From the IMG/VR virus record IMGVR_UViG_3300045999_010033, positions 1 through 64,000 of that record: a DNA stretch of 64,000 bases; one strand, given 5' to 3'. The notes under the pieces are model-generated. The model searched no databases and was not told the DNA's origin. It worked only from the letters and a program-made list of their open reading frames with translations. The position numbers and the translations under genes were made by a program. Within the stretch, counting starts at the first letter, position 1. The number at the start of each line of letters is the position of its first letter. This DNA is from a virus. Shown piece by piece: positions 12,265-58,873 of this stretch.

Positions 12265-12283
12265 ATGTTTTTATTTTTATTTG

Positions 12284-12376
12284 TAGTCAGGACAGGATTC
12301 GAACCTGTACAAAGTTATTTACTATTACCTTTGCCAGCTCGGATGCTGGTGTGTCTACCTATTTCACCACCTGACC
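12284..12376 (-). tRNA. class-II tRNA-like element (acceptor GGTCAGG/CCTGACT, D-arm, long V-arm, T-arm ACAGG-TTCGAAT-CCTGT; anticodon loop non-canonical 6 or 8 nt)
   Basis: Manual fold; one of three related copies (also 51344 and 52019). Confidence 0.5.
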
Positions 12377-29918: not shown

Positions 29919-31145
29919 TTATTTTTCGTGTTTCAATAAAAAAGTATTTGATATTACTTTGAATGAGATAGTTCTATCTAAACTACGAATCACTACACCC
30001 TCCCTATCAAAGTTTGGATTAAGTACCGATTTAGCATCAGCGTAACTCAACAATTCACTCACATCATTCGGTAAGATAAAGTTTGTATCTAAAACCGGCA
30101 CAGTCTCCAACCCAAAGGTATGTTCCATCGTAGCCATAAACATCGGAAGGCCATAATAGGTTTGGTTATCAATATCAAAGATGTTAAAGAACCTTACGGT
30201 CTGACCTTTTATCTTATATGGATTACCCTGAATACCCTCACCGATTAACTCACCCTGAATGGAAAGGTTCTTACCATAACTCCTAAGTTTGTTTTCCAAG
30301 TCAAGCTCTCTAGCCACCTTCCAAAATGTGTTTTCCGTTTTAGGTCGTTCAATGCCATCATCACACATAACCATACCGGGTACGAATGGTTCAGGTTCAC
30401 TCAATTCCAAATTACGGCTACACACTCCAAACACACCATCTTTGTAATAGAACGTTGCTGAACTACCATCAAGCTTTTCCGTTACATAGAACTGATGCTT
30501 TGATTGTAATCTCCAGCCTTCATATTCTTTTGTTAAGTTTTGTACACGCTCTTCATCGGTCTTTCTAATGAATGATGGGAACAACCCTTTCACTTTGCCG
30601 GATAGTTCGGCCGGTATTGGTGGCTCATATTTAGTGATACCCAACCTTTCAGTTACATCTTCACCGTCTACTATGGTGATAAGTCCTTTATATAATGTAC
30701 TATCTAACATAGTAAGTGGTAACAACAAACCTTGTGAAACCTGTCCACGCAATCGAATCGTTTTCAATCTGAATCCCTCACTACCATCTTTCATTTTCTT
30801 ATATGAAGATTTACGAAGAAACTCAAACTCATCACAAATCGGTAAGAACGAATCAACTTCACAATAAACACAAAGGTCACCCGGCTTATACTCGCCCTTT
30901 TTAGTTACTACCTTCCATCCGCCAACAACGGCAACTTCGATAGCATCCGCACCATCAATCGGTTGGATATCGGTAATCGTTCTTATACTTGCTAACTTCC
31001 TATCGGTCATAATTACGGAATTTTGTTCGTTTACAAATCTATCATTTTCGGTGAATCCGGCTGAATCGTATTCCGGCACATCATCTTCACTCATTGCTTG
31101 TAAGGCCATATCTTGCCATTCTTTCATTTCATCTTTCATATCCAT
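29919..31145 (-). CDS. ATP-dependent RNA ligase family protein (KxDG nucleotidyltransferase)
   Basis: Motif I 'TEKLDGSSATFY'; 408 aa. Confidence 0.55.
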   Translation of the reverse strand: MDMKDEMKEWQDMALQAMSEDDVPEYDSAGFTENDRFVNEQNSVIMTDRKLASIRTITDIQPIDGADAIEVAVVGGWKVVTKKGEYKPGDLCVYCEVDSFLPICDEFEFLRKSSYKKMKDGSEGFRLKTIRLRGQVSQGLLLPLTMLDSTLYKGLITIVDGEDVTERLGITKYEPPIPAELSGKVKGLFPSFIRKTDEERVQNLTKEYEGWRLQSKHQFYVTEKLDGSSATFYYKDGVFGVCSRNLELSEPEPFVPGMVMCDDGIERPKTENTFWKVARELDLENKLRSYGKNLSIQGELIGEGIQGNPYKIKGQTVRFFNIFDIDNQTYYGLPMFMATMEHTFGLETVPVLDTNFILPNDVSELLSYADAKSVLNPNFDREGVVIRSLDRTISFKVISNTFLLKHEK

Positions 31146-34245: not shown

Positions 34246-34371
34246 AATTTATAATTTCATTAAATGATTTCACTCATAAATATACATTTAATTTATAGTG
34301 TTACCAAACTTGTCTAAATAAAAAAAGCAGGGAAGCCGAAGCCTCCCTGCGTATATGAATCACCAAACCTA

Positions 34372-40765: not shown

Positions 40766-41064
40766 TGTTTTTCTATTTCAATTTTTACTTTTTGCCAAGC
40801 TAATAAAGATCCTGCAATAAGACCTTTAGCATGGGGGTGAAAATCTCCTGCTATTTCAAGTGATTCCTTCAAATCGTTTAATATCTCATCCACCGCTATT
40901 AATGCACACTCCTTAGCGTATTTGTTCTTTGGTACAGAATATAATTCCATAAGTTCAAGACTACCATTGAACTCCTCTCCCATTGACATTTTTTCAACCA
41001 GCTCTTTCGCTTTTTCTTTTGGTGTCATAATTTGTTTATTTTTACTCGTATGAATTTCTATCAA
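40762..41064 (-). CDS. hypothetical protein
   Basis: ORF track. Confidence 0.4.
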   Translation of the reverse strand: MIEIHTSKNKQIMTPKEKAKELVEKMSMGEEFNGSLELMELYSVPKNKYAKECALIAVDEILNDLKESLEIAGDFHPHAKGLIAGSLLAWQKVKIEIEKQ

Positions 41065-42154
41065 TGTTTACAACAAACGGAAAACGAGGTATGCCGTCCG
41101 GCGTTAAATTGAAATACTTTACAGTTGCCTGCTTACCTATGAGCTGTTTTCGGTTCTTCAACATTTCGGCAGTTTCTTCCCACGTTCCCTTTACATTTGA
41201 TTTGAAGCGTTTACCATCTTCCGTTTGGAATACAAAGTACCCAGCAGTTCCTGCTCTATTACCTTCACCCTCACAAATATCAATGATTTGGTATTCTTCA
41301 TCAATAAATGATTTGTGCTTCAATAGGTTCTTACTACGTTTGTTTTCATACTTACCATCCAAACGTAGCATCTGTCCTTCATATCCGGCTTCCACATATT
41401 GACCATACATAGCCATCAGCACTTCTTCGGTTAAGCATACGGTAGTTTCAACTCTAACACAATGCTTTTCAAAGGCATTTTTGAAATCATCAAACAAATC
41501 AACCAAAGTAATAGAACGATTCACAAACACGTCATTTACACTTGGTACATCGTAAATCCAATACTGAATGTTCTTCTCACTTTCTTCTAAATCTTCTTCG
41601 GTTGGTTTGGTTTTCTTCACTAACGAAACAATCTTATTGAAATCGTTGGCGAACTTATCGGCATACAACTCACCATCCAATATCAAATCGGGTTTGTTCT
41701 GAAATAGTTTATCCAATGATTGGCGGATATGTGGTGCGGATATAATCTCTTTACCATTACGGCTGAACATTCCATCCTTTGTAACTATACAGCGAATACC
41801 GTCCAGCTTCGGTTGAGAGTAGATAGGGTATTCGACCTTATCTTTGTAGTCCTCCCATTTTGCGGCCAACATCGGTTCAAAGTATTGCTTCTTATTTATA
41901 TGTTTGATGTTCTCAAAGTAACCACGTTCCAATTTCAATTTACGTTTAGCTTCAGCTTCTTTGAGTGCCTGCTCGTTATCCGTAGTGGCGTTTGCTCGCC
42001 CTTCATTCTTACCATACACTTCTGTCCACTCACTAATTACTTTTTTACCATCGGTTTGGCCTGATATGGTACGATACCGATTCTTTACTACTTCAATAGT
42101 CCACTCCTGCACCTTACCGCCCTTCGTGGATTTGTAAATTGTTTCTAACTTCAT
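41042..42154 (-). CDS. ATP-dependent DNA ligase (small T7-type)
   Basis: Motif I 'PKLDGIRCIV' (KxDGxR); 370 aa. Confidence 0.7.
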   Translation of the reverse strand: MKLETIYKSTKGGKVQEWTIEVVKNRYRTISGQTDGKKVISEWTEVYGKNEGRANATTDNEQALKEAEAKRKLKLERGYFENIKHINKKQYFEPMLAAKWEDYKDKVEYPIYSQPKLDGIRCIVTKDGMFSRNGKEIISAPHIRQSLDKLFQNKPDLILDGELYADKFANDFNKIVSLVKKTKPTEEDLEESEKNIQYWIYDVPSVNDVFVNRSITLVDLFDDFKNAFEKHCVRVETTVCLTEEVLMAMYGQYVEAGYEGQMLRLDGKYENKRSKNLLKHKSFIDEEYQIIDICEGEGNRAGTAGYFVFQTEDGKRFKSNVKGTWEETAEMLKNRKQLIGKQATVKYFNLTPDGIPRFPFVVNIDRNSYE

Positions 42155-42313
42155 ATGTGTCTGTATTATTATAGGCAGAATTATCCCAAACTTTGTTACA
42201 CAAAGATACGTAAAGTTGCCGATATAACCAAATAATTTTGTAACCCATTGAAAATCAATGAGTTACACTAAAAAGTAAAGTTATACCTTGACTTTTTGGG
42301 TATAAAAGTAAAG

Positions 42314-44471: not shown

Positions 44472-44526
44472 CCATACCTACCTTAATAGGTATGTTTGTC
44501 TATAATGTAAATATAGTAAAAGTTTT

Positions 44527-45594
44527 TTAATTATCCAAATCTTTCCGAAAAGGTTTTGCGTATTTAGGGCGAATACATTTCCATATAATAGAATCGTAAT
44601 CCCTCCCATCTAACATAGAAAATAATATTGATGCATGATTATAACGGATTGCTTTGATTGCAAACTCTTTTCTGCTCAAATTTTCACTACGAATGATTGA
44701 GAATATTTCCAAATAATCACGTTTAATATTTTCAAATCTAACTACCAAGTCTTTTACGGTATCCTTTACCCACGTATCAAATTCGTCCGGCACTCTTTCC
44801 AATAACTCATTCAAATCACCACCGGTCCGCAACAATTCCCAGATATCTACATTCGAAACATTGGTGATTATCTTATGAAGTCTTACATACTCTTCACCTT
44901 TGATTTTCATTCTCTTCCCACCTTTGAAACGTATTACATAACCTTCGGCATCATTTGAAATCATATCCTTCAACTTAGTGAAGTCAGTAACACCATTGTA
45001 CTTTCTAACAACTCTTACATCGGTAAAAAGTGCTACTGATTTAGTCAAAGTTTCAAATTCAATTTCGTCCAAAGTATCTCTATCATATGCACCCAACAAT
45101 ACCAAACCCTCAAATGGGTAGCGGCAGACTATCCGATTCTCATCATATATGATTTCAAAAAGGTAAGTCCAATTTTTTCTCAATCCAGTTGTAGGATAGT
45201 TTTTCAATATAGATAATCCCTTCAACATTTCAGTTGCCTTAACGGCTTGCTCTGAAACGAATGAACCTCTCGTTGCTACTATCCAATCTCCGTTATAGTA
45301 AAATGCAATTCCTAAAGAACCGTCCATCTTTTCAAAGACTTCAAATGATTCGTTTGGAATTTCACTATTGGATAATTCTTCCATATTGAAAAATTTTGGA
45401 AATGGTTTGGCTACCACAGTGCCTTCATTATCCAAAACCAATCCACGGCAATCCAATGTAACTGCATCCCACAATCGGTCGTATTGGCACGTTCTGCTGT
45501 AATTGTAGATTGATAAAGGTAACGTTGGATGGTCTTGCTTAACTATCAATCCTCGTCCGATATAATCGTTCAATATGTTTAATGGATATTTCAT
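44527..45594 (-). CDS. RNA ligase family protein (KxDG; Rnl2/DRB0094-like)
   Basis: 'FEKMDGSLGIAFY' motif I; 355 aa; upstream of Pnk-like kinase. Confidence 0.6.
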   Translation of the reverse strand: MKYPLNILNDYIGRGLIVKQDHPTLPLSIYNYSRTCQYDRLWDAVTLDCRGLVLDNEGTVVAKPFPKFFNMEELSNSEIPNESFEVFEKMDGSLGIAFYYNGDWIVATRGSFVSEQAVKATEMLKGLSILKNYPTTGLRKNWTYLFEIIYDENRIVCRYPFEGLVLLGAYDRDTLDEIEFETLTKSVALFTDVRVVRKYNGVTDFTKLKDMISNDAEGYVIRFKGGKRMKIKGEEYVRLHKIITNVSNVDIWELLRTGGDLNELLERVPDEFDTWVKDTVKDLVVRFENIKRDYLEIFSIIRSENLSRKEFAIKAIRYNHASILFSMLDGRDYDSIIWKCIRPKYAKPFRKDLDN

Positions 45595-47449: not shown

Positions 47450-48112
47450 TTATTTATATTTTTCTACTGATTCATGATGGTCGAAACTCATTAGGCTTTT
47501 GATTGGTTGCCTTCTCATACGGGTAGCAATTTCACTTACCGAAATCGGCCTCAAACCATTACCGTCCACACCAACATCCATCATTTTACCTGGTCCAATT
47601 CTACTAGCCATAGGTAAATGAACGTGTCCATGCAAATGAATTGCACCATTGGCCATTTGGTCCCAACTGGCAATAGGAAAGTGCATCAGTACAAACAATT
47701 CACTACTAACAAGCGGAGTACCCACATTCCGTTTTACAGTTAAATGTAAGTATTTGTTTACGGAACTGAAATGTGATTGACATCCTTCTTTGTTTCTCTC
47801 AATATGATGGTCGTGGTTTCCGGTGATGATGTGAATGTTCTTACATACGATACGATTACGGAAGGCTTCGATTTGCTCAAACCCACCAAAACTCCAATCG
47901 CCCAAATGAAAAAGAATATCATCTTGTCCGACTTCGGCGTTGATGTTATTCACCAATGTATCGTTCATTTCATCCAATGATTTGAAATCTCTACACGTCA
48001 CCGGGTCTTTCCATTGTGTTGTAGTGGAACAGATGTTGGCGTGATTGTAGTGTGTATCAGATGTGAACCACAATTGTTGACCTTTATTTAAACTTATTTT
48101 CATTTGTTTCAT
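47450..48112 (-). CDS. calcineurin-like metallophosphoesterase
   Basis: 'FTSDTHYNH', 'GDWSFGG', 'GNHDHH' motifs. Confidence 0.6.
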   Translation of the reverse strand: MKQMKISLNKGQQLWFTSDTHYNHANICSTTTQWKDPVTCRDFKSLDEMNDTLVNNINAEVGQDDILFHLGDWSFGGFEQIEAFRNRIVCKNIHIITGNHDHHIERNKEGCQSHFSSVNKYLHLTVKRNVGTPLVSSELFVLMHFPIASWDQMANGAIHLHGHVHLPMASRIGPGKMMDVGVDGNGLRPISVSEIATRMRRQPIKSLMSFDHHESVEKYK

Positions 48113-49731: not shown

Positions 49732-49780
49732 GTGTTTAAGTATTAAATATAAGTATTTTTTTGGATTAAACCAAAACTGA

Positions 49781-50653: not shown

Positions 50654-50727
50654 TGGCGGTTCGTAGGGGTTACGCTCCCCTGCCTTCGCAGTGACAGTGC
50701 GATATTCTACTATTATACTAACGAACC
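50654..50727 (-). tRNA. tRNA-Asp(GTC) with non-canonical T-loop (AGCGTAA) and encoded CCA
   Basis: Acceptor GGTTCGT/ACGAACC perfect, AC stem TCGCA/TGCGA loop CTGTCAC. Confidence 0.6.
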
Positions 50728-55438: not shown

Positions 55439-55520
55439 TTGGGGTAGACGGACTCGAACCGCCGGACTCCGAAGAGAGAGCATTTACAGTGCCCCGCAAT
55501 TGCCGCTATGCGATACCCCA
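55439..55520 (-). tRNA. tRNA-Tyr(GTA)
   Basis: Class II; AC loop CTGTAAA; V-arm CTC-TTCG-GAG. Confidence 0.7.
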
Positions 55521-55526
55521 TTGTAG

Positions 55527-55598
55527 TAGAAGGTGGGAATTACGATATCCCGACCTCTTGGATGTAAACCAAGTGCTCTGCCTCTGAGCTAACCTTCT
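55527..55598 (-). tRNA. tRNA-Val(TAC)
   Basis: AC stem CTTGG/CCAAG loop TTTACAT. Confidence 0.7.
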
Positions 55599-55628
55599 CC
55601 GTTTTCCATATGTCAAAGAACATACCTG

Positions 55629-55700
55629 CGCTGATGGAGAATTACGATATCCCGACCTGAGTCTTAACAGGACCCTGCTCTACCTCTGAGCTACATCAGC
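55629..55700 (-). tRNA. tRNA-Asn(GTT)
   Basis: Acceptor GCTGATG/CATCAGC; AC loop CTGTTAA. Confidence 0.7.
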
Positions 55701-55717
55701 AAATGACAATAACGAAA

Positions 55718-55752
55718 ATACCCCCGAAACAATCAGGGGTATTTTACGCTAT
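55718..55752 (-). terminator. stem-loop (ATACCCC...GGGGTAT, 7 bp) followed by T-run on minus strand
   Basis: Seen in sequence between tRNA at 55915 and tRNA cluster. Confidence 0.35.
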
Positions 55753-55914
55753 CACAGTCTACTTATATGTTCACTATGCCCCTGCTATACATTTGTATCG
55801 AACACGCAGACTCCTTCCCACTTAATGATGGGATACGTGCGATTGATATGTTTATTAAACAGGTTCATAATTGTTTTGTTATAAGTATAAAGTATTTTCA
55901 AAAAAAGTTACCAG

Positions 55915-55985
55915 AGCGAAGCCAGAGAGTCGAACTCCATCCTGCGACCTGGAGGGCCGCCGTGCTACCGTTACACTAACTCCAC
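55915..55985 (-). tRNA. tRNA with anticodon TCC (Gly-like; loop CCTCCAG, C33)
   Basis: D-arm GTG-TAACGGTAG-CAC; G-U-rich acceptor. Confidence 0.5.
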
Positions 55986-55989
55986 TTAT

Positions 55990-57060
55990 AAAGGTGAGAT
56001 TACCCTTTGTTGAGAACAGCCTTTAGAAAGATTATTAGTTCCTCTCTTATCCACCACCTTTTGAGCGGTATCCGTTCAGTGTCGGTTAGTAATGCTAACC
56101 ACTCATTAAGTTACTGACTACTCTCTTATTACTCCCCTTCTTCTACCCTGCCGAGCAGATTCACACTTGCGGTGTTAGAAGCTTTTCGTAAGAATCACAG
56201 ACCTCTTGCGGAGGTATCGTGGCTGGGAACAACTCCCAACTATGTAGACACCTTTCATCCGTAACTGATGGGCACTTATGCTTCATTTTGATTTTATAGT
56301 TTTGCTACCAAATGCAAGTATAAAGTTGGTTTGTAGATTGATTCAGGTAGTGGCCCATCTGCCAGCTCCCTCACCTTTTGAGTGAGGAAATACTAAACTA
56401 CCCGATGTGATATCCCTATCACCATATTTTAAGTCTGCTTCATAACTCATGCTTTGGTAAGCGAAGGTTAAGGGCAACAACGACACCACTCGTACTTTAC
56501 CATACCTTTCGGTTTTAAGTGAACTCTAATATTGGATAACGAAATGATACGAAGGGATTAAGTTCGTACTTCTCACATATACCCTATGGGTTATTCCTAT
56601 TATCCTTCCGGATTCAAATGAACTATCTACTTAGCCCATTCACCCAGACACCTCACCTACAGCCTTGCCGTCAGTTACTAAGTCCGAGTGGTATCCCACT
56701 TGCCTACTCAACCTCTTTTGGGAGGCGCATCGGTGCTTAACCAAACACCAACACTTTATCCTACTTTCGTAGTTTATTTAACGACCATAGGCGGCCGATT
56801 TGTACTATGTAACGCGAGGTTACTATGTACTCATTTCGTAATGTAAAAGAACTTTAATGTGAACCAAACTTACGCCCTATTAAGGATACTCCGTTTATAC
56901 TACTTTCACATCTGAATCGGTAGTGCGATTTTACTAAAGATAAGTAAAGTTTTTCAAATTACCAAATCTTTATTCGTTGAACATTTTCGGTTATGTTTAT
57001 TTACACCATATAATACTTCCTACTTCTGAACAAGTTTATAAAGTTAAGTAAAGTTTTTCA
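55990..57060. ncRNA. about 1.07-kb ORF-free region flanked by tRNAs; candidate large structured ncRNA
   Basis: No ORF of 60 aa or more in any frame of ORF track; internal short repeats (CACCTTTTGAG, AAGTAAAGTTTTTCAA). Confidence 0.35.
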
Positions 57061-57079
57061 ACTTTCCAAATCTTTATAG

Positions 57080-57151
57080 TTGCGGGGGGTGGAATCGAAC
57101 CACCGTAGGCGAGGCTTATGAGACCTGCGGATAACCAACAATCTCCCCACA
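57080..57151 (-). tRNA. tRNA-Met(CAT) (or Ile-lysidine) copy 1
   Basis: AC loop CTCATAA with 4-bp stem; T-arm GGTGG-TTCGATT-CCACC. Confidence 0.55.
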
Positions 57152-57186
57152 ATGTATAAATATATATAAAGAACTATTTTTTTAGA

Positions 57187-57256
57187 TGCCCTTTTAGGAT
57201 TCGAACCTAAACTAACAGAATCAAAATCTGTTGTGCTAACCGTTACACTAAAGAGC
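57187..57256 (-). tRNA. tRNA-Gln(TTG)
   Basis: AC stem ACAGA/TCTGT loop TTTTGAT. Confidence 0.65.
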
Positions 57257-57359
57257 AATTTTCAAATCTCATTTTCGTTTGATAACTCAAAGTTAAGGAA
57301 AATTTTCCAATCTACCAAATTTTTTTGTTATCCATTGAAAATCAACGAATTGATTATAA

Positions 57360-57450
57360 TAACACATCCATCTCTTATTGACTACCATAAACACATTCTG
57401 TATGGTTTACCACATCTATAATCTATGACACATAGGAGATGGATGTGTTA
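57360..57450. repeat. 15-bp perfect inverted repeat TAACACATCCATCTC / GAGATGGATGTGTTA with about 60-nt spacer
   Basis: Seen in sequence. Confidence 0.7.
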
Positions 57451-57583
57451 AAATTTGCTCGTCTATTCCGAGCCGCCAATCAGTATCGAGTAACTAATAC
57501 GTAGCATACCACTACACTATCTGTCGAGGGAGGTGATTCCCCACAGACCTTGTGGCTTCTTTATCACCCATACCACAATAGTG

Positions 57584-57657
57584 TGGACTCTCACGGGCTC
57601 GAACCGTGGACCTAATGATTATGAGTCATTTGCTCTAACCAACTGAGCTAAGAGTCC
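57584..57657 (-). tRNA. tRNA-Met(CAT) copy 2
   Basis: Acceptor GGACTCT/AGAGTCC; D-arm AGCTCAGTTGGTTAGAGC; AC stem AATGA/TCATT loop CTCATAA. Confidence 0.75.
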
Positions 57658-57659
57658 AA

Positions 57660-57810
57660 AGTGGACGTGGTGGGAGTCGAACCCACGTCTTGATAAGAAA
57701 TCCTACCACCAACGTATCACAAGTTTATTCCTACATTCGGGTTGGACACCTATCTAACATTCTCACACCGTGTTAGCCGACGGTGATAGTGGTTCGATTC
57801 GGCCACTATG
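57660..57810 (-). pseudogene. tRNA-like remnants (T-arm GTGGG-TTCGACT-CCCAC at 3' side; class-II D-arm-like GCATAGTGGCCGAAT at 5' side)
   Basis: Fragments resemble the class-II tRNAs elsewhere but no consistent acceptor pairing. Confidence 0.3.
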
Positions 57811-58132
57811 CCACATAGAGAATCACATTCTATTTTAATCCCACGATGTGTGCGGGAGCGGTTACGCAGCTACTGCGTACTCAGCGTTGGCGTATGTGTT
57901 GCCAGTTATTCTTCGATACAATATTAAGGGATAGTATCATTTCCCTACTTGTGATGGTAACACTCACATACCAATCAATTACCAATACACGCCCATATTT
58001 ATAAGAACTATATATCTCCCATTTTTGGTCGATAACCAAAGTTACTACTTTTTTTTGGATTTACCAAACATTTCGGAAAATATTTTTTAAATCGTTGAAA
58101 ATCAACCGATTACGTATTAAAAAAAGAAATAT

Positions 58133-58873
58133 CTATCGGTTTTTCCTCAAAATTAGGGCCGTTTCCATCCACTTTTTTCCTATCGGATTGACCACCGGGG
58201 CATCAACAAATCGGCGAACGACTCGTTTTACATCTGAATCCGGATTAGAAGACTCTGAGTTTTCAACAATATACAATCGGTTTCCAAATATCGTGCGATA
58301 TTCACCCAATGCAGACTGGCATTTATTCCATAACCCTTCAACAAGCTCGTTTGATATGGAACGTTCCCGCTCACTATTACGTTTCAATGCAACTTCTAAT
58401 GTAGTATTAACGAACACCATTGCCGCATCATAACCGGCGGCTTCCATTTCAGATTTACGGCCGGCAATGTAAGCCGGATTGGCACCGGTACTATCCATTA
58501 TCATTCCCAGTCGCCCTTCCATATACATCTTACGTGTCGCAGATACCATACGAAATGCCTTTTGTCGTATACCGGAGCCAGTTTTATCTCGGCCGGTATC
58601 TATTACTGATGAATAAAACTCCGGGTCTTCATCTCGTATCTTACCCAACTCCTTTGGATTGATACCATTTTTTTGTAGAAACGCCTCAAAAGCATGATCC
58701 GAATTTATTACCTTCAATCCCATGCCGGTAAGGCTTGAACGCTTCGGCAATCCAAATATCTGGTCTATGATATACGATTTACCCGAACCGGGTCCACCTG
58801 CAGTAAACACACATTTGAGTACACCACGATTGAATACTCCTTCGTTTAATAAGGGTTTTAATAGGATAGCCAT
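58133..58873 (-). CDS. P-loop nucleoside/nucleotide kinase-like protein
   Basis: 'FTAGGPGSGKSY' Walker A; 246 aa. Confidence 0.5.
   Translation of the reverse strand: MAILLKPLLNEGVFNRGVLKCVFTAGGPGSGKSYIIDQIFGLPKRSSLTGMGLKVINSDHAFEAFLQKNGINPKELGKIRDEDPEFYSSVIDTGRDKTGSGIRQKAFRMVSATRKMYMEGRLGMIMDSTGANPAYIAGRKSEMEAAGYDAAMVFVNTTLEVALKRNSERERSISNELVEGLWNKCQSALGEYRTIFGNRLYIVENSESSNPDSDVKRVVRRFVDAPVVNPIGKKWMETALILRKNR

Follow-up and report, generated by a model that had tools for sequence, protein, structure and literature searches.

A predicted full-length GOLLD RNA of the env-38 type, with a complementary exchange at a subunit contact, in a viral tRNA array

Background

What occupies more than a kilobase of viral DNA in which neither strand holds an open reading frame (ORF) of 60 aa or more? 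The question is raised by positions 55980-57057 of the 64-kb window, by which we mean the whole stretch of DNA analysed here. At 1078 nt this is the longest such stretch in the window, the second longest being 673 nt and covering a tRNA-Met and the tmRNA, so that the original prediction was right to single it out as the only ORF-free stretch of kilobase scale. The longest ORFs within it encode 52 aa (plus strand) and 48 aa (minus strand), and the minus strand carries all genes of the window, the 25 tRNAs called by ARAGORN and the tmRNA. The prediction, made from the letters alone, was that 55990-57060 is a large structured non-coding RNA (ncRNA) similar to GOLLD or ROOL, with a cluster of promoters or an intron-like element as other possibilities.

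GOLLD RNAs are among the largest bacterial and phage ncRNAs without a known function, and they form cages made of RNA only. They are stable RNAs whose level rises during lytic growth. The family (Rfam RF02032) includes members in Mycobacterium tRNA arrays and in Caulobacter, Vibrio and Mycobacterium phages, and the window's stretch likewise lies in a tRNA array of the phage type. The GOLLD env-38, from a marine metagenome, was resolved by cryo-EM as a 14-subunit RNA cage (PDB 9MEE; Kretsch et al., Nature 2025, PMC12286853) that is stable down to 12.5 nM (PMC12286853). The Streptococcus agalactiae GOLLD, as summarised in PMC12990946, assembles from 12 subunits at full length (PDB 9L0R) and from 10 as the 3' domain (9LMF). 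ROOL, which also occurs near phage tRNAs, forms an 8-subunit RNA cage (PMC12286853). Its probable working likeness to GOLLD is that of a large RNA-only cage of identical subunits near phage tRNA islands, while in sequence and fold it is unrelated to the RNA described here, which is not a ROOL member.

Results and discussion

Identity and extent of the RNA

A cmscan search of the whole window placed RF02032 on the minus strand at 55991-56405, where it scored 296.6 bits (gathering score 150; E 8.1e-84). The match is untruncated, running over model positions 1-416 of 416, and in a permissive Rfam scan of 55500-57700 GOLLD was found at E 2.8e-85. The permissive scan gave no match at E up to 10 to ROOL, HEARO or the group I and II introns, and ROOL had no match at its gathering score across the whole window. 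Another large RNA or a self-splicing element of these kinds would be of similar size and would share the phage and tRNA context, but none of their models matches at E up to 10 where GOLLD matches from end to end. We consider such an explanation practically negligible and have rejected it, and with it the intron-like element of the original prediction. The large structured ncRNA that was predicted is specifically a GOLLD.

In the covariance model (CM) alignment every helix of the 3' domain is present, including the long-range pseudoknot and the UCAAAAG and CGCAA loops, and only four non-standard pairs are flagged. The Rfam model covers the conserved 3' half alone, which corresponds here to the GOLLD 3' domain (P14-P27) at 55991..56405 on the minus strand, where the CM match is joined by covariation in 36 homologs. 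The 5' half was compared with env-38, whose sequence was machine-read from the PDF supplement of Kretsch et al. 2025 (PMC12286853) for 816 of about 833 nt. Over both domains the window is 70% identical to env-38 (E 1e-76, nt 5-787 of the machine-read sequence), and the alignment together with covariation places a 5' domain, homologous to env-38 nt 1-420 (the cage cap), at 56406..56799 (minus strand). An A/U-rich variable linker, the J13/15 region, lies at approximately 56283..56341 on the minus strand and is unpaired and poorly conserved in both the Rfam and the 36-sequence alignments. In env-38 this linker is disordered and faces the cage interior (PMC12286853). Some GOLLDs embed a tRNA in it (PMC12990946), unlike the window's RNA, in which no embedded tRNA was called at 56283..56341.

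The GOLLD core thus delimited spans 55991-56853 on the minus strand (863 nt), or about 940 nt if a leader starting at about 56930 is counted. The family is marked by giant RNAs of at least about 800 nt whose 5' domain is set apart and less conserved, and by coding in phages or prophages beside tRNA genes; both hallmarks are found here, the first in the 863-nt core with its 5' domain. On this sequence evidence the region is a full-length env-38-type GOLLD RNA on the minus strand with both domains, and a new member of a known family. The predicted extent was somewhat too wide, as the RNA fills about 55991-56932 and not all of 55990-57060. We are highly confident in the combined explanation, that of a full-length GOLLD that would be driven by promoters, linked to a tRNA-Gly and able to form a cage. 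The locus offers a well-delimited full-length member of the env-38 type with predicted promoters and tRNA-Gly as a probable processing partner, and for specialists its value lies in the covariation-backed 5' alignment, the 5' hairpin P0, the layout with tmRNA, the probable Bacteroidota host and the exchange at bridge B2, all discussed below.

Homologs

A 20-nt motif from the upstream region retrieved 12 IMG/VR loci and 42 metagenome loci, and a second 5' motif at least 120 further IMG/VR loci. Search patterns drawn from the 5' domain yielded many more loci than a 3'-domain pattern, with which a scan of IMG/VR returned only two; a scan with neighbouring proteins gave one locus, without GOLLD information. 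In a profile search more than 130 full-length homologs (132-135) were recovered, which are 61-77% identical to the window. A blastn search of the region against 50,697 GenBank phages matched only the flanking tRNA-Gln, and a close cultured relative is absent from that collection. Two alignments were used, a first one of 36 sequences and a larger one of 120. For the 5' half the published GOLLD alignment (Kretsch Supplementary File 3, PMC12286853) was of no use, as it is confined to the 3' domain. The more than 130 full-length homologs thus provide covariation support for a 5' domain that is absent from both the Rfam model and the published alignment.

Structure and covariation

RNAalifold predicted 225 pairs from the 36 sequences, 112 of them with compensatory changes. 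The 5' region (columns 38-507, the P0 hairpin included) has 136 predicted pairs in 19 helices, and 98.0% of the cells are paired. Double changes occur at 76 of the 136 pairs, compared with 50.0 +/- 2.7 in column shuffles, where none of 500 reached 76. The covariation score of this region is 0.432 against 0.166 when shuffled. When partners were slid by 1-3 columns, 18-28 pairs were double-changed and the score fell to 0.06-0.08; since the 5' structure was predicted from the same alignment, this slid control is somewhat generous to the structure, but the margin is still large. The single-sequence fold of the GOLLD has z = -5.79. The end-to-end model match and the compensatory changes are the outcomes of two of the checks that had been suggested with the original prediction, and both speak for a GOLLD.

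Small proteins of less than 60 aa, or tRNAs that had escaped recognition, might instead account for the gap. The 48-aa and 52-aa ORFs do lie inside it, and a sub-threshold tRNA(CAU) is found at its edge, at 57079-57151. Of 119 homologs, however, only 7 keep the first of these ORFs open and in frame and only 4 the second, the substitutions keep base pairs and not codons, and neither ARAGORN nor Rfam finds a tRNA between 55991 and 57078. Such an explanation, which had been named as one that would count against an RNA, has in our judgement almost no chance of being right. The absence of ORFs was itself a lucky flag: it is incidental and no property of the family, because chance ORFs at least 60 aa long are present in 86 of the 120 homologous RNAs.

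The 5' domain holds a short form of P11a (ACC-GAAA-GGU, minus strand), which is 17 nt shorter than that of env-38 and keeps the GAAA loop. This shortening, together with the slight degeneracy of the flanking tRNA(CAU), could point to a decaying, non-functional GOLLD relic. The short P11a is, however, the majority form, found in 71 of 120 homologs, the CM match is full-length and untruncated, and the residues that make contacts are conserved. In addition, the identical sequence occurs in an independent contig, and a relative that is 96.8% identical (L175) differs by double changes that preserve the structure. Decay is therefore a very improbable account of this locus.

Upstream of the point at which env-38 starts, the window has a conserved 5' extension at 56800..56853 (minus strand). 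It begins AGUUCUUU... and continues with a hairpin that we name P0 (stem GUAAC/GUUAC, 56823-56809). The extension is common to the 34 natural sequences that cover this region in the first alignment and aligns in 75 of the 120 sequences of the larger set. Its 5-bp stem covaries among AU, GC, UA and CG types (columns 48-50 with 57-59). Between P0 and the predicted promoter P1 lies a 77-nt leader module (56856..56932, minus strand), a small conserved element whose insertion at this place is seen in the window and a few relatives. Homologs of the leader are found upstream of GOLLD in some loci (L001/L049/L028, L051/L033 and L024) and downstream of it, between tRNA-Gly and tRNA-Glu, in others (L011/L007/L037/L050). 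The leader has a few covarying pairs, its single-sequence fold (z = -0.05) is no better than that of shuffled sequences, and it had no Rfam match in the permissive scan of 55500-57700. Both P0 and the leader lie upstream of the env-38 start and are absent from the env-38 cryo-EM construct.

Promoters, processing and flanking tRNAs

Both families of short repeats named in the original prediction are present. One of them, the "AAGTAAAG..." repeats, corresponds to two promoter-like copies upstream of GOLLD. These are part of a 39-nt repeat found at 56935-56973 and 57039-57077, with 92% identity, and in a third, weaker copy at 57288-57326 (77%). Primary-sigma promoters of Bacteroidota have the consensus -33 TTTG / -7 TAnnTTTG. 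On the minus strand the 39-nt repeats read TTTG, a 20-nt spacer and TAnnTTTA, which we take to fit this consensus. The predicted promoter P1 (56935..56966, minus strand) has TTTG at 56966-56963, the 20-nt spacer and TAtcTTTA at 56942-56935, with a start expected at about 56930; P2, its tandem copy (57039..57070, minus strand), has TTTG, the 20-nt spacer and TAacTTTA. P1 is kept in two of the homologous loci (L001 and L002). The window contains the motif TTTG-N19-21-TAnnTTTR 18 times, where 3.96 copies would be expected (none of 100 shuffles reached this number); 13 of the 18 are on the coding (minus) strand, in most cases a short distance upstream of an ORF, a tRNA or the tmRNA. The motif is found at most 250 nt upstream of GOLLD in 75 of 110 homologous loci, and the P0 segment is preceded in most loci, at a distance of 11-37 nt, by a promoter-like box. 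We infer that 56935-57077 holds a tandem pair of promoters, P1 and P2, from which GOLLD would be transcribed.

The suggestion of a promoter cluster is thus upheld for 56935-57077 and fails for the RNA part, about 55991-56932. As a complete explanation, the region would be a regulatory spacer only, with promoters for the surrounding tRNA genes and no RNA product of its own. The two tandem repeats at 56935-57077 and the third at 57288-57326 agree with this, but the promoters take up about 140 nt, and the other 860-940 nt have an end-to-end CM match and compensatory changes across more than 100 homologs. The CM match and the covariation of the 5' region rule out a promoter cluster as the whole answer, and we give the spacer hardly any weight.

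The original prediction also placed tRNA genes on both sides. On the 3' side this is clear: tRNA-Gly(UCC) (55914-55985, minus strand) begins 5 nt past the GOLLD 3' end. On the 5' side the tRNA(CAU)-like element (57079-57151, minus strand) is sub-threshold, with 23.1 bits in Rfam against a cut-off of 29, a call by ARAGORN at relaxed thresholds only and a weak D arm; its homolog in the relative L175 is called as a tRNA-Met at default settings. The next confident tRNA on that side is tRNA-Gln (57185-57257), and a run of ARAGORN that allowed for introns revealed no further tRNA in 57258-57582. A tRNA-Gly (UCC or ACC) lies 4-10 nt past GOLLD in 12 of 35 scanned loci, and tRNA-Gly(UCC) of the window is probably co-transcribed with GOLLD. 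If so, cleavage by RNase P at the 5' end of the tRNA would also create the 3' end of GOLLD. A terminator-like hairpin downstream of tRNA-Gly (55715..55745, minus strand; 13 pairs followed by a T run, from a consensus scan) possibly marks the end of the GOLLD/tRNA-Gly transcription unit; it is a candidate, because such hits are no commoner in the region than in shuffled sequence.

Contacts between subunits

Contacts between chains of the env-38 cage were taken from Supplementary Table 2 of Kretsch et al. 2025 (PMC12286853) and mapped onto our alignments. Because the env-38 sequence was machine-read, its residue numbers were re-anchored locally; for C250-U258, U588/A589 and U603/G604 they gave no fit, and these residues were placed by motif or helix. 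The second repeat family of the original prediction, the "CACCTTTTGAG" repeats, turned out to be the two UCAAAAG loops of the 3' domain, and CACCTTTTGAGYG is present in exactly two copies, at 56055-56067 and 56372-56384, against an expectation of 0.02. The second copy (56372..56384, minus strand) is loop L14 (CUCAAAAGG), whose A56378 and A56377 correspond to A447 and A448 of env-38 in the A-minor bridge B6 and are invariant in all 120 sequences. The first copy (56055..56067, minus strand) is the other UCAAAAG loop and the site of bridge B10. In env-38, A763 and A764 form this A-minor bridge, which joins the two half-shells (PMC12286853). They correspond to two adjacent adenines of A56062-A56059, the exact pair hanging on a numbering offset that may be wrong by 1-2 nt. 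Each of the four is conserved across the first alignment's 35 natural sequences, and 56060 and 56059 are invariant in all 120 of the larger one.

The other bridges, B2 excepted, are kept in a similar way. The adenines of B1, B6 and B10 and A204 of B3 are invariant (120/120) and present in the window, as is A203 of B3, which is A in 114 of 120. The 5-bp kissing loop of B4 is intact, with GGGAU at 56416-56412 facing AUCCC at 56558-56554. The C371-G341 pair of B5 is conserved in all 120 sequences. In B7 the first pair is equally conserved and the second covaries (GC 80, CG 30, UA 6). B8 is GC in 108 of 120, and in B9 a self-complementary GC (90 of 120) alternates with CG (16). In the window B5, B7, B8 and B9 are all complementary. 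Nearly all residues that join the env-38 subunits are thus kept, as far as the alignments allow them to be placed; the exception is B2, which is changed to a complementary pair.

The window's RNA therefore resembles env-38 in both homologous domains, in the same helices and in the bridging residues of B1 and B3-B10, and differs from it in the shorter P11a, in a C:G at B2 and in a G-C at B7 where env-38 has U-A. With the S. agalactiae GOLLD it shares the family and the architecture of the 3' domain, and in the S. agalactiae assembly, too, the 5' domain forms the cap, but that RNA lacks P9, P11a-c and P21b (PMC12990946). Unlike it, the window keeps two GC-containing loops that map to B8 and B9 (the L21a and L21b kissing loops), and two B5 loops taken as L11b and L11c, and shortens only the presumed P11a. 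On these helix labels (L11b, L11c, P11a), which were assigned from the text of the paper and not from a figure, the window's GOLLD appears nearer to env-38 than to that of S. agalactiae.

By homology, the following course of events may be proposed. GOLLD would be transcribed from P1, P2 or both during infection by a large phage of Bacteroidota or Flavobacteria, together with the tRNA-Gly 5 nt downstream, and RNase P would cut at the 5' end of tRNA-Gly to make the GOLLD 3' end. By analogy with the published structures, copies of the RNA would then self-assemble into a closed RNA-only cage, with caps formed by the 5' domains and rings by the 3' domains. The two UCAAAAG loops and the GAAA tetraloop would make A-minor contacts, and several loops would kiss. 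The number of subunits is not predictable from sequence, the published GOLLDs having 12 or 14 and P11a being short here. The short P11a, or the 5' hairpin and leader that are outside the solved construct, could alter the assembly or the number of subunits.

It may be objected that in vivo GOLLD is a monomer, or an RNA bound to protein or to ribosomes, and that the in vitro cage of env-38 is not the functional form. The structures of env-38 and of other GOLLDs all come from outside cells, Kretsch et al. mention ribosome binding in pull-downs (PMC12286853), and the window has an extra 5' hairpin and leader that the solved construct does not include. Residues whose only contacts are between chains are, however, invariant (B1, B5, B6, B10) or covarying (B7, B9) among the 120 sequences, and B2 carries a complementary change on each side. 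This conservation and the double change at B2 are hard to explain without selection on contacts between subunits, and the published cages are stable at 12.5 nM. We think it unlikely that the cage is an artefact in this sense and retain the reading of a GOLLD that would assemble into a cage.

The exchange at bridge B2

In env-38, the 'daisy chain' of the cap has a Watson-Crick pair that joins G140 of one chain to C146 of another (PMC12286853). At the corresponding site of the window (56664..56670, minus strand) these two residues are replaced by C56670 and G56664. Among the aligned sequences the pair is GC in 119 of 120, and CG in the window alone. The same exchange is carried by L172, an independent 9.2-kb contig that is 100% identical over 1441 nt, and by L175, which is 96.8% identical, and because both of them share it an assembly error does not account for it. 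The joint change of two otherwise invariant positions is most simply read, as far as sequence comparison goes, as a compensation that keeps the contact. It could also be that the exchange breaks the bridge instead, since G56660 offers C56670 a partner in the same chain.

We are inclined to regard the compensated exchange as the first comparative evidence that selection maintains the 'daisy chain' contact of the 5' cap, a conclusion that we hold as probable with considerable reservation. As a natural complementary exchange between subunits it amounts to a ready-made experiment in cage assembly. A further and rather improbable speculation is that the exchange is a switch of assembly specificity, by which the cap ring of this lineage would close with its own subunits only and not with those of co-infecting GOLLDs of the G:C type. 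If this were true, cage assembly would be selected in vivo and would be able to evolve discrimination between self and non-self.

Genomic context and host

The order tmRNA, tRNA-Met, (promoter), GOLLD and tRNA array recurs in the scanned loci, and homologs with the same layout are found on IMG/VR viral contigs. The tmRNA was called in 15 of 35 scanned loci, many of which are short contigs. The position downstream of a tRNA-Met and beside tRNAs is also shared with env-38. This recurring layout ties GOLLD to genes for the takeover of translation. Because GOLLD sits between the phage tmRNA/tRNA-Met and the tRNA array, we tentatively suggest that the cage may belong to a translation-takeover module of the phage and may hold or shield cargo related to tRNAs or ribosomes, an idea for which we claim rather less than an even chance.

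When 185,579 reference genomes were searched with the GOLLD 5' motif, it was found only in a Flavobacterium MAG and in an uncultured Bacteroidetes MAG. From these matches and from the type of promoter, we suggest that the source is probably a large phage that infects Flavobacteria or other Bacteroidota, mostly from lakes. The probable host phylum, Bacteroidota, distinguishes the window from the RF02032 members listed above, and Bacteroidota/Flavobacteria may be an added host phylum for GOLLD. The two MAG contigs may be co-binned phage DNA. Proteins of the window are also encoded on a 221-kb JGI contig, and related contigs reach 238-321 kb. Genes of phage type lie nearby, and the neighbours encode two RNA ligases, a DNA ligase, NAMPT, AAA ATPases, a P-loop kinase, a phosphoesterase and a protease of the head-maturation type.

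Gene order and RNA elements around GOLLD

The giant phage RNA GOLLD is part of a gene arrangement that recurs in related loci. In our analysis a phage-encoded tmRNA with the tag GNTYANAEYAVAA was found at 57659-57994 (-), directly followed by tRNA-Met, and the order tmRNA, tRNA-Met, GOLLD is repeated in the related loci scanned. A tmRNA was called in 15 of these 35 loci, with tags that differ, for example DEKSTMTYNDLMAFVGMDYAVAA. Between tRNA-Met and the promoter P3 lies a non-coding stretch (57335-57582, -), for which no Rfam match was found and whose conservation is limited to the closest relatives, the 100% identical contig L172 and the 96.8% identical L175. This stretch folds better than its shuffles (z = -3.15) and contains a long hairpin, the closing stem of which is a perfect 14-nt inverted repeat, AACACAUCCAUCUC / GAGAUGGAUGUGUU.

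Nearer to GOLLD, a candidate tRNA(CAU), whose D arm is weak, was identified at 57079-57151 (-). Its Rfam score of 23.1 bits falls below the cut-off of 29, and relaxed thresholds are needed for ARAGORN to call it; its homolog in L175 (6600-6673) is called as tRNA-Met at default settings. On the other side, the tRNA-Gly at 55914-55985, right after GOLLD, has a homolog at 7735-7806 of L175 that differs from it in the anticodon-loop sequence (UAUUCAUAU) and for which there was no ARAGORN call. Judging from these sequences, the tRNA abutting GOLLD appears to evolve rapidly.

The position relative to GOLLD varies for a conserved module that is some 77 nt long. In the window it is placed between the promoter and GOLLD (56856-56932, -), and in L001 (6865-6945) it is likewise upstream of GOLLD; in other phages, for example at L011 1729-1809 and L050 1732-1810, it lies downstream of GOLLD, between tRNA-Gly and tRNA-Glu. 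The module may form a pseudoknot (ACUAC/GUAGU and AUGUGA/UCACAU). Another short conserved element, ATAGGTGATGAAAGATACTCGG, absent from the window, was observed upstream of GOLLD in the homologous loci L034, L033, L023, L001 and L002, where it separates the promoter box from the GOLLD 5' end.

Promoter motifs, a possible RNA-repair gene set and other tRNAs

The Bacteroidota-type promoter motif (TTTG, a 19-21 nt spacer and TAnnTTTR) has 18 sites in the window, an approximately 4.5-fold enrichment; 13 of these are coding-strand sites, mostly a short distance before an ORF, a tRNA or the tmRNA (for example 58037-58068, 49744-49775, 44508-44539, 42201-42232 and 34277-34308, all -). Such enrichment upstream of coding-strand genes suggests a Bacteroidota host. 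Scattered among the tRNA array are genes for two RNA ligases (29919-31145 and 44527-45594), an ATP-dependent DNA ligase (41042-42154), a phosphoesterase (47450-48112) and a P-loop (Zeta-toxin/AAA_33-like) kinase (58133-58873), all on the (-) strand, which together look like an RNA-repair gene set. Two tRNAs, 55629-55700 and 50657-50727 (-), were scored by Rfam at 48.8 and 49.7 bits and were not called by ARAGORN at default settings. Distant from the main array, a 94-nt 'tRNA-???' with a two-base ARAGORN anticodon (cc) was observed at 12283-12376 (-); Rfam scores this odd or interrupted element as tRNA at 44 bits.
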